A DNA stretch of 44,453 nt. It comes from an uncultured Candidatus Saccharibacteria bacterium. GTDB taxonomy: Bacteria; Patescibacteriota; Minisyncoccia; UBA6257; JACOXY01. The notes below the pieces were generated by a model. It ran no database searches, was not told the origin of the DNA, and saw only the letters and a program-made list of their open reading frames with translations. The stretch's first letter is position 1, and each line of letters begins with the position of its first letter. The stretch is taken from NCBI GenBank assembly GCA_964357615.1, contig CAYHMC010000010.1:1-44453 (forward strand), written 5' to 3'. This document shows, in pieces, positions 27,064-28,308 of this stretch. Both the position numbers and the translations under genes were made by a program.

Positions 27064-28308
27064 TTAGTTTGAGATATTTACAGGCATATTCACAAATGAT
27101 CTAACAAGAGGATTGCGATGCATCTCTGGGCCAGCTCCAGCATATGTCATATTCGAAAAGCGTTTTATAAGCTCTTCTAAGACAACTTTTATTTCTATGC
27201 GTGCAAGATTTGCACCAAGACAAACATGTGACCCAATTCCAAATCCAAGGTGTGGGTTTGGTTCACGATTTATATCGAATTTATCAGGATTAATAAATAC
27301 TTTCTCATCACGATTTGCTGATGTATAAACCAAAAGAACTTTCTGGCCAGGATATAAATGCTTACCACTAAGTTCAGTTTTTCGAATTACTGTTCTTGTA
27401 AATGTTCTAACTGGAGTTACATGTCTTACAATTTCTTCAATAGCGTTTCTAATTAATTCAGGCTTAGATTTAAGCAATGTTAGTTGTTCTGGATTTTCAA
27501 TAAATTGGGCAATTCCACCAGAAATTGCATTGCGCGTAGTTTCATTGCCCGCAACAGTTAGAAGCACAAGCAACATATTTAATTCATCAATTGATAATGC
27601 TTTGTATTCATTTGTTTCCTGCATTTCATTTGAACTGTTTGAAATATTTGATTCGTGCGCAGAAAGTAATCCTCCACTCTTAGCGCCAAGAAGCGTGCTT
27701 ATAATGTCATTTTTTGGATTGACTATTCTATCTTCTGCAACATCCCTCATGTAACGACCAAATGCTAAAAATGCTTCAGCTACCTTATACATTATCTCTG
27801 GATTGTCGTAATTCCCGTCTGCCATTATAAGTGCGTCAGACCATTCACGCAGTTTTCCAAGGTCTTCCAATGGCATACCAATAAGTCTTGCAATCATAAA
27901 AATTGGAAGTGGAGCCGAAAGATCGCTAACTATATCGCTTTTGCCCTTAGCAATAATTTGATTCATTAACTCTATGGTAAACATTCTTATTTCTTCACCC
28001 AACATTTCTACTCGACTACGAGTGAAACCCTTATTAATTAATTGCCTGACTTTTGTGTGATGCGGTTCATCGTCATCAATTAGTCCAAAGGGGACTGGAT
28101 TTCCTACTCGAACACCTTTTGCTGATGTAAAAATGTTTTGGTTTCTTGAAATATAATCAACATCTTTGTGAGTTGTAATTATCCATATACGACTAGTTTC
28201 AGACCAATGTACGGGGTCATTATTTCGAAGTAGGCGAAAACGCTCGTACATATCAGGTGAATCATCCCACGCATCTGGTTTTAGCCAGTCTATCTTTTCC
28301 AAGTTCAT
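27064..28308 (-). CDS. Cytochrome P450 monooxygenase
   Basis: Heme-ligand loop FGIGSHVCLGANLA, I-helix AGNETT, EIVRH (ExxR). Confidence 0.9.
   Translation of the reverse strand: MNLEKIDWLKPDAWDDSPDMYERFRLLRNNDPVHWSETSRIWIITTHKDVDYISRNQNIFTSAKGVRVGNPVPFGLIDDDEPHHTKVRQLINKGFTRSRVEMLGEEIRMFTIELMNQIIAKGKSDIVSDLSAPLPIFMIARLIGMPLEDLGKLREWSDALIMADGNYDNPEIMYKVAEAFLAFGRYMRDVAEDRIVNPKNDIISTLLGAKSGGLLSAHESNISNSSNEMQETNEYKALSIDELNMLLVLLTVAGNETTRNAISGGIAQFIENPEQLTLLKSKPELIRNAIEEIVRHVTPVRTFTRTVIRKTELSGKHLYPGQKVLLVYTSANRDEKVFINPDKFDINREPNPHLGFGIGSHVCLGANLARIEIKVVLEELIKRFSNMTYAGAGPEMHRNPLVRSFVNMPVNISN

Follow-up and report, generated by a model that had tools for sequence, protein, structure and literature searches.

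A cytochrome P450 of the CYP125/142/124 clan, apparently long resident in a Parcubacteria genome from oxic groundwater

The contig CAYHMC010000010.1 (assembly GCA_964357615.1; 44,453 nucleotides, analyzed at its full length and called here "the window") carries at 27064–28308, on the minus strand, a gene for a cytochrome P450, an enzyme not expected in a bacterium of the Candidate Phyla Radiation (CPR). We think it probable that this gene encodes a functional, stand-alone class I P450, long resident in a Parcubacteria genome and horizontally acquired from, or shared with, an unnamed clade of P450s that have an insertion in the H-I loop. The common view of CPR bacteria is one of minimal symbionts, fermentative for the most part, whose lipids and cofactors come from a host. 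A literature search by title and abstract returned no description of a P450 in CPR bacteria, and two papers on CPR from the Hainich groundwater go without mention of one; the preliminary description of the locus had called P450s unusual in hosts of this kind.

The gene begins with an ATG and runs uninterrupted for 414 codons at a GC content of 37%, giving a soluble protein of 414 residues with no fused reductase domain, which matches PF00067 with E = 1.3e-27 (97.2 bits against a cut-off of 22.8). The haem Cys-ligand loop, FGIGSHVCLG (27214–27243, minus strand; residues 356–365), provides the ligand C363, and F356, G357, G359, H361, C363, and G365 are invariant in the alignment of 119 members of the clade described below. 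Invariant in the clade as well are the I-helix O2-activation motif AGNETT (27535–27552, minus; residues 253–258) with its acid-alcohol pair E256/T257, residues E292 and R295 of the K-helix ExxR (E292-I-V-R295; 27424–27435, minus), and the haem-propionate ligands H84, R88, R305, and H361, all of which are present. An AlphaFold model built on the homologue alignment has a pLDDT of 92.2 and a pTM of 0.91, with confidence dipping only in the H-I loop (block-mean pLDDT of 59 over residues 221–230). The top Foldseek matches of this model are CYP125, CYP142, and CYP124 (TM 0.80–0.86, with 30–34% identity to the natural enzymes), those to CYP125 and CYP142 having E values of about 1e-27 to 1e-30 and TM values of 0.83–0.86; the best PDB matches by sequence are the reconstructed CYP125MRCA (1.5e-78) and CYP142 (2.3e-62). 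The stretch 27064–28308 is an intact P450 with all haem-binding and O2-activation residues and a confident predicted fold. The preliminary description had reported an intact Cys-ligand loop and had named loss of the haem cysteine, or a pseudogene, as grounds for abandoning that view: C363 is in place, the motifs are complete, the reading frame is open, and Pfam and the fold agree.

Membership of a CYP family takes more than 40% amino-acid identity, and on this rule the three nearest named families were each ruled out. The P450 is 35% identical to Mycobacterium tuberculosis CYP142A1 over 346 aligned residues (30–32% in structure-based alignments), too little for CYP142. To the natural CYP125A1 and CYP125A3 it is 31–34% identical, reaching 38–42% only with the reconstructed CYP125MRCA, and it lacks the N-terminal and Cys-loop insertions of CYP125; to CYP124A1 it is 30–32% identical, where more than 40% would be needed for CYP124. 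The enzyme lies within the CYP125/142/124 clan but outside all three families, and it probably deserves a new CYP family name. The JGI labels on its homologues, CYP142A1 and cholest-4-en-3-one 26-monooxygenase, are automatic nearest-orthologue names and not tested membership. Also rejected were the cyclodipeptide-tailoring, peroxygenase, and glycosyltransferase-activator types, for which the NCBIfam scores are far below the cut-offs; the presence of the acid-alcohol pair and the Cys ligand, with no cyclodipeptide synthase (CDPS) nearby, excludes these types further.

A search of 5.8 billion clustered proteins left the P450 without cluster mates, the next best match being 50% identical, while a scan of genome contigs gave as nearest match a delta proteobacterium metagenome-assembled genome (MAG), at 49%. 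The top 120 matches form one clade with a mean mutual identity of 62.6%, to which the window P450 averages 47.5% (46–50% to all 118 aligned members); where its members are named, they are mostly MAGs of Myxococcota, Binatia, "Deltaproteobacteria," and Proteobacteria. What marks this clade is an insertion of about 22 residues in the H-I loop (27601–27669, minus; residues 214–236), which leaves a gap when HMMER aligns the protein with CYP125MRCA or CYP142 and is found in 10 of the 10 top matches aligned, whereas CYP125 and CYP142 are without it. With the insertion and at least 40% identity, the window P450 itself belongs to the clade. It retains 63 of the 66 positions that are invariant in the other 118 members, all haem and catalytic residues included, and its substitutions are mostly conservative (K/R, I/L/M/F, S/T), in line with AT bias. 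In a scan of viral contigs the P450s were at most 31% identical, with no sign of a phage vector.

One clade member, P0013, is of particular interest. It is encoded on contig JAQBTR010000016.1 (GCA_027624915.1) and is 48% identical to the window P450. In a neighbour-joining tree rooted on CYP142, the two are paired in 87 of 100 bootstraps, on long branches (0.46 and 0.41) that meet close to the base of the clade, where the tree does not resolve the order. The window P450 has 21 rare states (present in less than 10% of the other sequences) in common with P0013, and at most nine with any other sequence. These shared states include a DSP insertion at residues 16–18; W8, S17-P18, H317, Y319, and P320 are found in no other aligned sequence, and QET inside the H-I insertion occurs in both and in 2–4% of the others. 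The endonuclease III (Nth) of the P0013 contig has its best matches in Patescibacteria, Parcubacteria Gr01-1014, Ryanbacteria, and Sungbacteria (60–64%), and this contig, too, is probably from Parcubacteria. The simplest reading suggests an old P450 lineage inside Parcubacteria, spread either vertically, with losses along the way, or by transfer from one CPR bacterium to another. Because both CPR copies are still intact at 48% identity, the comparison argues for long-term purifying selection, although the CPR copies have evolved more quickly than those of the large genomes.

The P0013 contig (16 kb, 41% GC, with many small unannotated genes) has its P450 as a stand-alone gene without TetR. There is no synteny between it and the window, the P450 alone being shared, and on the same ground a link between the GC-rich island beside the window P450 and one in the P0013 contig was rejected. 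The stretch 8650–14141 of the latter takes in this island, which follows its P450 directly, and a series of genes related to oxygen, arranged like an operon and not usual in CPR, which encode a Rieske protein, an MR_MLE enolase-type protein, a GH3 acyl-acid amido synthetase, and an FA_hydroxylase of the sterol desaturase/hydroxylase superfamily. The Rieske ferredoxin-like protein has 84 residues with a bona fide Rieske motif (CTH...CPCH) and lies 1.7 kb from the P450; it, the FA_hydroxylase, and the GH3 gene all fall within 6 kb, whereas the window has none of them.

The host can be read from the beginning of the window, where the S10/spc ribosomal operon comes first and genes for SecY, Adk, Map, GreA, an aminoacyl-tRNA synthetase, L10, and L12 come after it. 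The best named relatives of SecY are from Candidatus Liptonbacteria (77%), Paceibacterota (70%), and Harrisonbacteria (about 65%), and on this evidence the host is a member of the CPR/Patescibacteria, class Parcubacteria/Paceibacteria. The same DNA is present in ENA from Hainich groundwater well H41, 0.1 µm fraction, and this well is permanently oxic, with 4.83 mg/L O2 (PMC8672522). Of the CPR-like and presumably fermentative host proposed in the preliminary description, the first part is borne out by SecY, while the second needs qualifying, the well being oxic, and is not to be read as anoxic.

The P450 gene is at home in this genome by composition. Its GC content at third codon positions (GC3) is 0.248, and its synonymous-codon distance to the other window genes, 0.113, is among the lowest of 44 genes; foreign islands at about 17.7–19.5, 28.46–29.04, and 42.76–43.48 kb have a GC3 of 0.56–0.78 and distances of 0.30–0.58. 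The FYMINK/GARP ratio of the protein, 1.36, is the highest of 121 homologues (median 0.84). Replicate assemblies also contain the locus: the ENA R3 contig (Hain_H41_01um_R3, 21.4 kb, 4x) matches 17064–29388 at 99.99%, and the R1 contig matches 27799–30364 at 99.92%, so that the locus junctions are reproduced across three assemblies from replicate samples. We take the P450 to be a compositionally native, long-resident gene, its host-like codon and amino-acid usage pointing to an old acquisition. This native composition and the sister on a second contig had been overlooked in the preliminary description.

Expression signals are present on both sides of the gene. A ribosome-binding site, AAGGA (28315–28319, minus), lies 6 nt 5' of the ATG, and a weak candidate promoter, TTGCGA-18-TATATT (28460–28489, minus; 9 of 12 matches), comes from a consensus scan only and is tentative, such matches being no commoner than expected from shuffled sequence. 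On the 3' side, the stop codon is followed by a repeat element of 101 nt and then by a terminator-like hairpin, ATCCGCTAAATTAATAGCGGAT, with a T-run (26924–26955, minus; from a terminator scan). Because of this hairpin and T-run, the P450 looks like a monocistronic unit with a ribosome-binding site and terminator-like hairpin of its own.

The repeat, at 26963–27063 (plus strand), is the fourth copy of a family resembling miniature inverted-repeat transposable elements (MITEs), with terminal inverted repeats (TIRs) ACCCCGTTAGAAAC / GCTTCTAATGGGGT and direct repeats (G)TAGTTT / (T)TAGTTT. Placed between stop and terminator, this copy ends directly against the stop codon (27064–27066), as the preliminary description had observed, and the family is genuine, with 7 occurrences of its seed where 0.79 would be expected. 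The other three copies (8002–8119, 9458–9560, and 12440–12555, all plus) are in the ribosomal operon. The four copies are about 100–118 nt long, with TIRs of 11–14 nt (CCCGTTAGAAA...TTCTAAYGGG), differing interiors, and 6-bp flanking direct repeats (ATGAAT/ATGAAT, ATGGAT/ATGGAT, ATGTAT/ATGAAT, and TAGTTT/TAGTTT), of which the 3' one is, in the three operon copies, the start codon of the SecY, Adk, or bPH gene. They are like MITEs in being short and non-coding, with TIRs, several copies, and target-site duplications. All copies also fold better than shuffled sequence (z of −4 to −6), and the repeat may be a functional RNA stem instead of, or besides, a mobile element. In a related contig, whose SecY is 89% identical and which is collinear with the window up to the deaminase gene before diverging and ending, two copies occupy the same spacers (1359–1471 and about 4398–4510), and no empty site was seen. 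These two thus read best as old insertions or functional stems rather than as demonstrably mobile elements. A reading as attC sites was rejected on inspection, the GTT/AAC cores being in the wrong order on either strand, and Rfam has no family for the repeat or for the GC-rich segment. Removing the fourth copy and one direct repeat in silico gives an open reading frame (ORF) that ends in ...NISNYIR, with its stop inside the terminator stem; it is three residues longer and brings the C-terminus close to the usual clade length. The insertion, we infer, probably clipped three residues off the P450.

The absence of a visible redox partner in 44 kb, noted in the preliminary description, stands as an observation. 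Pfam found no ferredoxin, flavodoxin, or flavin-reductase domain in 43 of the larger ORFs of the window (six ribosomal-operon ORFs and the small ORFs were left unscanned), and no 2Fe-2S, 3Fe-4S, or 4Fe-4S cysteine motif is present in any window ORF of at least 35 residues. As an anomaly it does not hold up, since the homologous loci examined in large genomes are, in 4 of 4 cases, likewise without a ferredoxin or reductase adjoining the P450; their neighbours are acyl-CoA dehydrogenases, a CoA-transferase, an enoyl-CoA hydratase, and MMPL. Moreover, spinach ferredoxin and reductase can stand in as partners for CYP125MRCA, which is active on sterols with them (PMC12100521). The missing adjacent partner is not diagnostic, both because the homologous loci also lack one and because CYP125MRCA works with surrogates. 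A 2-oxoacid:ferredoxin oxidoreductase (K00174) is found in 14% of Hainich CPR MAGs (PMC8672522).

On this basis, a working model of the enzyme can be proposed. Haem, either scavenged or made by genes outside the window, would be bound via C363, and two electrons would be delivered by a ferredoxin or flavodoxin system whose genes would lie outside the window, a possible donor being a low-potential ferredoxin reduced by 2-oxoacid:ferredoxin oxidoreductase. Since well H41 is oxic, O2 should be available, and it would be activated through the E256/T257 pair. The enzyme would then hydroxylate a long hydrophobic molecule, for example a sterol, a hopanoid, an isoprenoid, or a branched-lipid chain, at its terminal methyl or alkyl end. 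To our knowledge, CPR bacteria are without lipid synthesis, and neither make nor β-oxidize lipids of the sterol, hopanoid, isoprenoid, or branched-chain type. Because of this, and because there is no β-oxidation or steroid pathway in the window, the substrate would most likely be scavenged from the host or environment, and modified, not catabolized. The characterized members of the clan (CYP125, CYP142, and CYP124) act on sterol side chains or on methyl-branched lipids, which they oxidize at the terminal methyl (PMC12100521), and this chemistry, with the lipid- and steroid-catabolic contexts of the nearest homologues, is why we infer ω-hydroxylation of a long hydrophobic chain.

Several observations weigh against a functional, long-resident enzyme of this kind. 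Three otherwise invariant residues are changed (P97R, C124S, and L269F), and the window P450 keeps 81.5% of the columns conserved at 95% or more, the lowest value of 119, as the most divergent member (P0013 is second lowest, with 89%); such divergence would fit relaxed constraint as well as adaptation. The 2x R1 assembly has C>A at window position 27842 (R1 contig position 44), changing the invariant tryptophan in W156L, a difference due either to an error in sequencing or to variation within the population. Coverage is low, at 4x and 2x; the sister pairing unites two long branches in a neighbour-joining tree, and it is possible that two independent P450 captures and long-branch attraction explain it; and the substrate is assigned from clan membership at 31–35% identity (38–42% to CYP125MRCA), where specificity is poorly predicted. 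Taken together, the reduced conservation, the three replaced residues, the three residues probably trimmed by the MITE-like insertion, W156L in one low-coverage assembly, and the lack of a partner in the window could describe a relic, acquired long ago, of no further use to a cell with neither a dedicated electron chain nor haem synthesis, and drifting towards a pseudogene while still open. We regard this as quite improbable, with 414 codons open at 37% GC, haem and catalytic residues kept, mostly conservative changes, and an intact ribosome-binding site and terminator, and with P0013 intact too at 48% identity, which implies purifying selection in both lines.

Somewhat easier to entertain, if still unlikely, is a functional P450 with another job, tailoring a small secondary metabolite or detoxifying a host or environmental compound. 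It would suit the partial NCBIfam similarity to tailoring P450s (cyclodipeptide-associated at 2.9e-48, SolI, and TxtE), although these scores are far below the cut-offs, as well as the 31–35% identity to natural sterol enzymes (38–42% for CYP125MRCA) and the absence of lipid-metabolism genes nearby. However, the best matches in sequence and structure are consistently CYP125, CYP142, and CYP124, the nearest homologues have around them genes for acyl-CoA dehydrogenase, CoA-transferase, enoyl-CoA hydratase, and MMPL, of the kind usual where lipids or steroids are broken down, and the window contains no CDPS, nonribosomal peptide synthetase, or terpene synthase cluster. Finally, the named close homologues, P0013 aside, are all from large-genome taxa, and with the low coverage this might raise the question of an assembly or binning artefact, or of a very recent transfer from a Myxococcota/deltaproteobacterial genome. 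We consider this extremely improbable: codon use and amino-acid composition are fully CPR-like, the maximum identity in the databases is 50%, both junctions are found in replicate assemblies, and the repeat abutting the stop codon also occurs in the ribosomal operon of the contig. Because of the composition, the assemblies, and this shared repeat, a chimera or recent transfer is effectively excluded for practical purposes. Our preferred reading is still that of a functional enzyme: the gene is a real, resident P450 in an unexpected host, from a known clan, with a sister in another CPR and, probably, the function outlined above.

The consequences reach beyond the single gene. An old, conserved monooxygenase that needs O2 and haem, present on two divergent contigs of Parcubacteria type, strengthens the recent case for oxygen-dependent reactions in groundwater CPR (PMC12577380). 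The gene further provides an expressible enzyme with which to ask which host-derived hydrophobic molecules are modified, where the haem comes from, and what a minimal P450 electron chain requires, and it offers P450 enzymology a deep-branching enzyme, compact and AT-adapted, that is related to the CYP125/142/124 clan of drug targets. A more ambitious view, which we hold to be unlikely, is of a Parcubacteria-specific P450 lineage that oxidizes host sterol, hopanoid, or isoprenoid lipids with a non-canonical electron supply and scavenged haem. It would have been kept for very long in cells without lipid synthesis, respiration, or, probably, haem synthesis; it could serve to remodel the membrane that the symbiont has scavenged, or else to change or attack the envelope of the host; and its electrons might come via a ferredoxin reduced by a fermentative 2-oxoacid oxidoreductase, or via a small Rieske protein such as that near P0013. 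If true, it would be the first oxygen-dependent lipid-modifying step in CPR episymbiosis.

Among the neighbours of the P450, a gene for a protein of 864 residues resembling the major vault protein (MVP; 29203–31797; MVP_shoulder 1.6e-21, Vault_3 3e-13) is separated from it by a GC-rich gene of 160 codons. MVP homologues of 68–71% identity on other metagenome contigs (6224–8824 and 4051–5718) have other upstream neighbours, ordinary bacterial housekeeping genes, and no P450, and the adjacency looks coincidental. An empty-site test through this gene gave no clean empty site and shows only that the adjacency is not conserved. The ORF of 776 residues (31927–34257) has an N-terminal hydrophobic membrane anchor and a dockerin-like duplicated Ca-binding motif, DTDCNGSVGVSD / DMDCNGSLSLTD (residues 368–379 and 407–418), followed by what resembles, by eye, a pectate-lyase β-helix; Pfam gives nothing for it, even with matches up to E ≤ 1 allowed. 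The preliminary description had set the P450 beside an MVP-like locus and a dockerin-bearing enzyme: an MVP-like gene and a dockerin-like motif are there, but the adjacency to MVP, unconserved in homologues, probably carries no weight. The GC-rich foreign gene between P450 and MVP-like gene (28434–29060; GC 0.50, GC3 0.56) contains the 160-residue ORF at 28514–28996, on the strand opposite the P450, with a perfect TTGACA-17-TATAAT promoter, an AGGAG ribosome-binding site, a TTG start, and, after it, a hairpin and T-run that were read by eye and are not in the terminator scan list. Its protein family counts 133 representative clusters at E ≤ 1e-3, aligned over the full length; neither Pfam nor PHROG annotates it, it has no relatives among the viral contigs, and a C-terminal CxxC...CxxC-like pair suggests a zinc ribbon.

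The island at 17721–19500 (GC 0.51, ORF GC3 0.69–0.78) spans tRNA-Met (18005–18077), with its ORFs downstream of the tRNA, one of which (18854–19378) matches phrog_24725 at 3.7e-27; it is likely the remnant of an integrated mobile element, and synteny with the related contig breaks just before it. A third island (42761–43480; GC 0.57) matches nothing in Pfam or PHROG; its ORFs overlap across the two strands, and the one at 42952–43392 has a GC3 of 0.76. That the three GC-rich islands are copies of one element was rejected, there being no mutual similarity. On its P450 side, the locus is followed immediately downstream, at about 19.9–25.7 kb, by a copper-homeostasis cluster of a CsoR-type repressor, a CopA P-type ATPase with HMA, a 202-residue protein of no known kind, DUF305, an HMA-DsbD_2 fusion, and a cupredoxin-like protein; copA is a noted feature of Hainich CPR (PMC8672522). 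An S-adenosylmethionine (S-box) riboswitch (16882–16982, 62 bits) lies between tRNA-Val and an ORF of 164 residues (17027–17521) without a Pfam domain.

Among the named families, CYP125 gives the best match by sequence and by structure and has the same I-helix AGNETTRN and Cys-loop CLGANLAR segments as the window P450; the M243 of CYP125MRCA, which keeps a side channel open, aligns with M245, and CYP125 is likewise a soluble class I enzyme with no redox partner beside its gene. CYP125A1 is nonetheless only 33% identical, CYP125 has N-terminal insertions and a two-residue insertion in the Cys loop (GGGGPH) that are absent from the window P450, and it has no counterpart to the 22-residue H-I insertion; a steroid-degradation pathway, moreover, is not in view in the host. 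CYP142 is similar in length, architecture, and compactness, with a Cys loop of equal length and TM values of 0.85–0.86, but its I-helix reads GGDETTRH in place of AGNETTRN, and it, too, is without the H-I insertion. The greatest likeness is to the unnamed, TetR-linked clade (P0002–P0120), with which the window P450 has in common the H-I insertion and 63 invariant positions (119 sequences). In large genomes the loci of this clade have TetR directly upstream in 4 of 4 cases and lipid-catabolic genes around, neither of which is found at the two CPR copies, and relative to the clade the window P450 is an outlier on a long branch.

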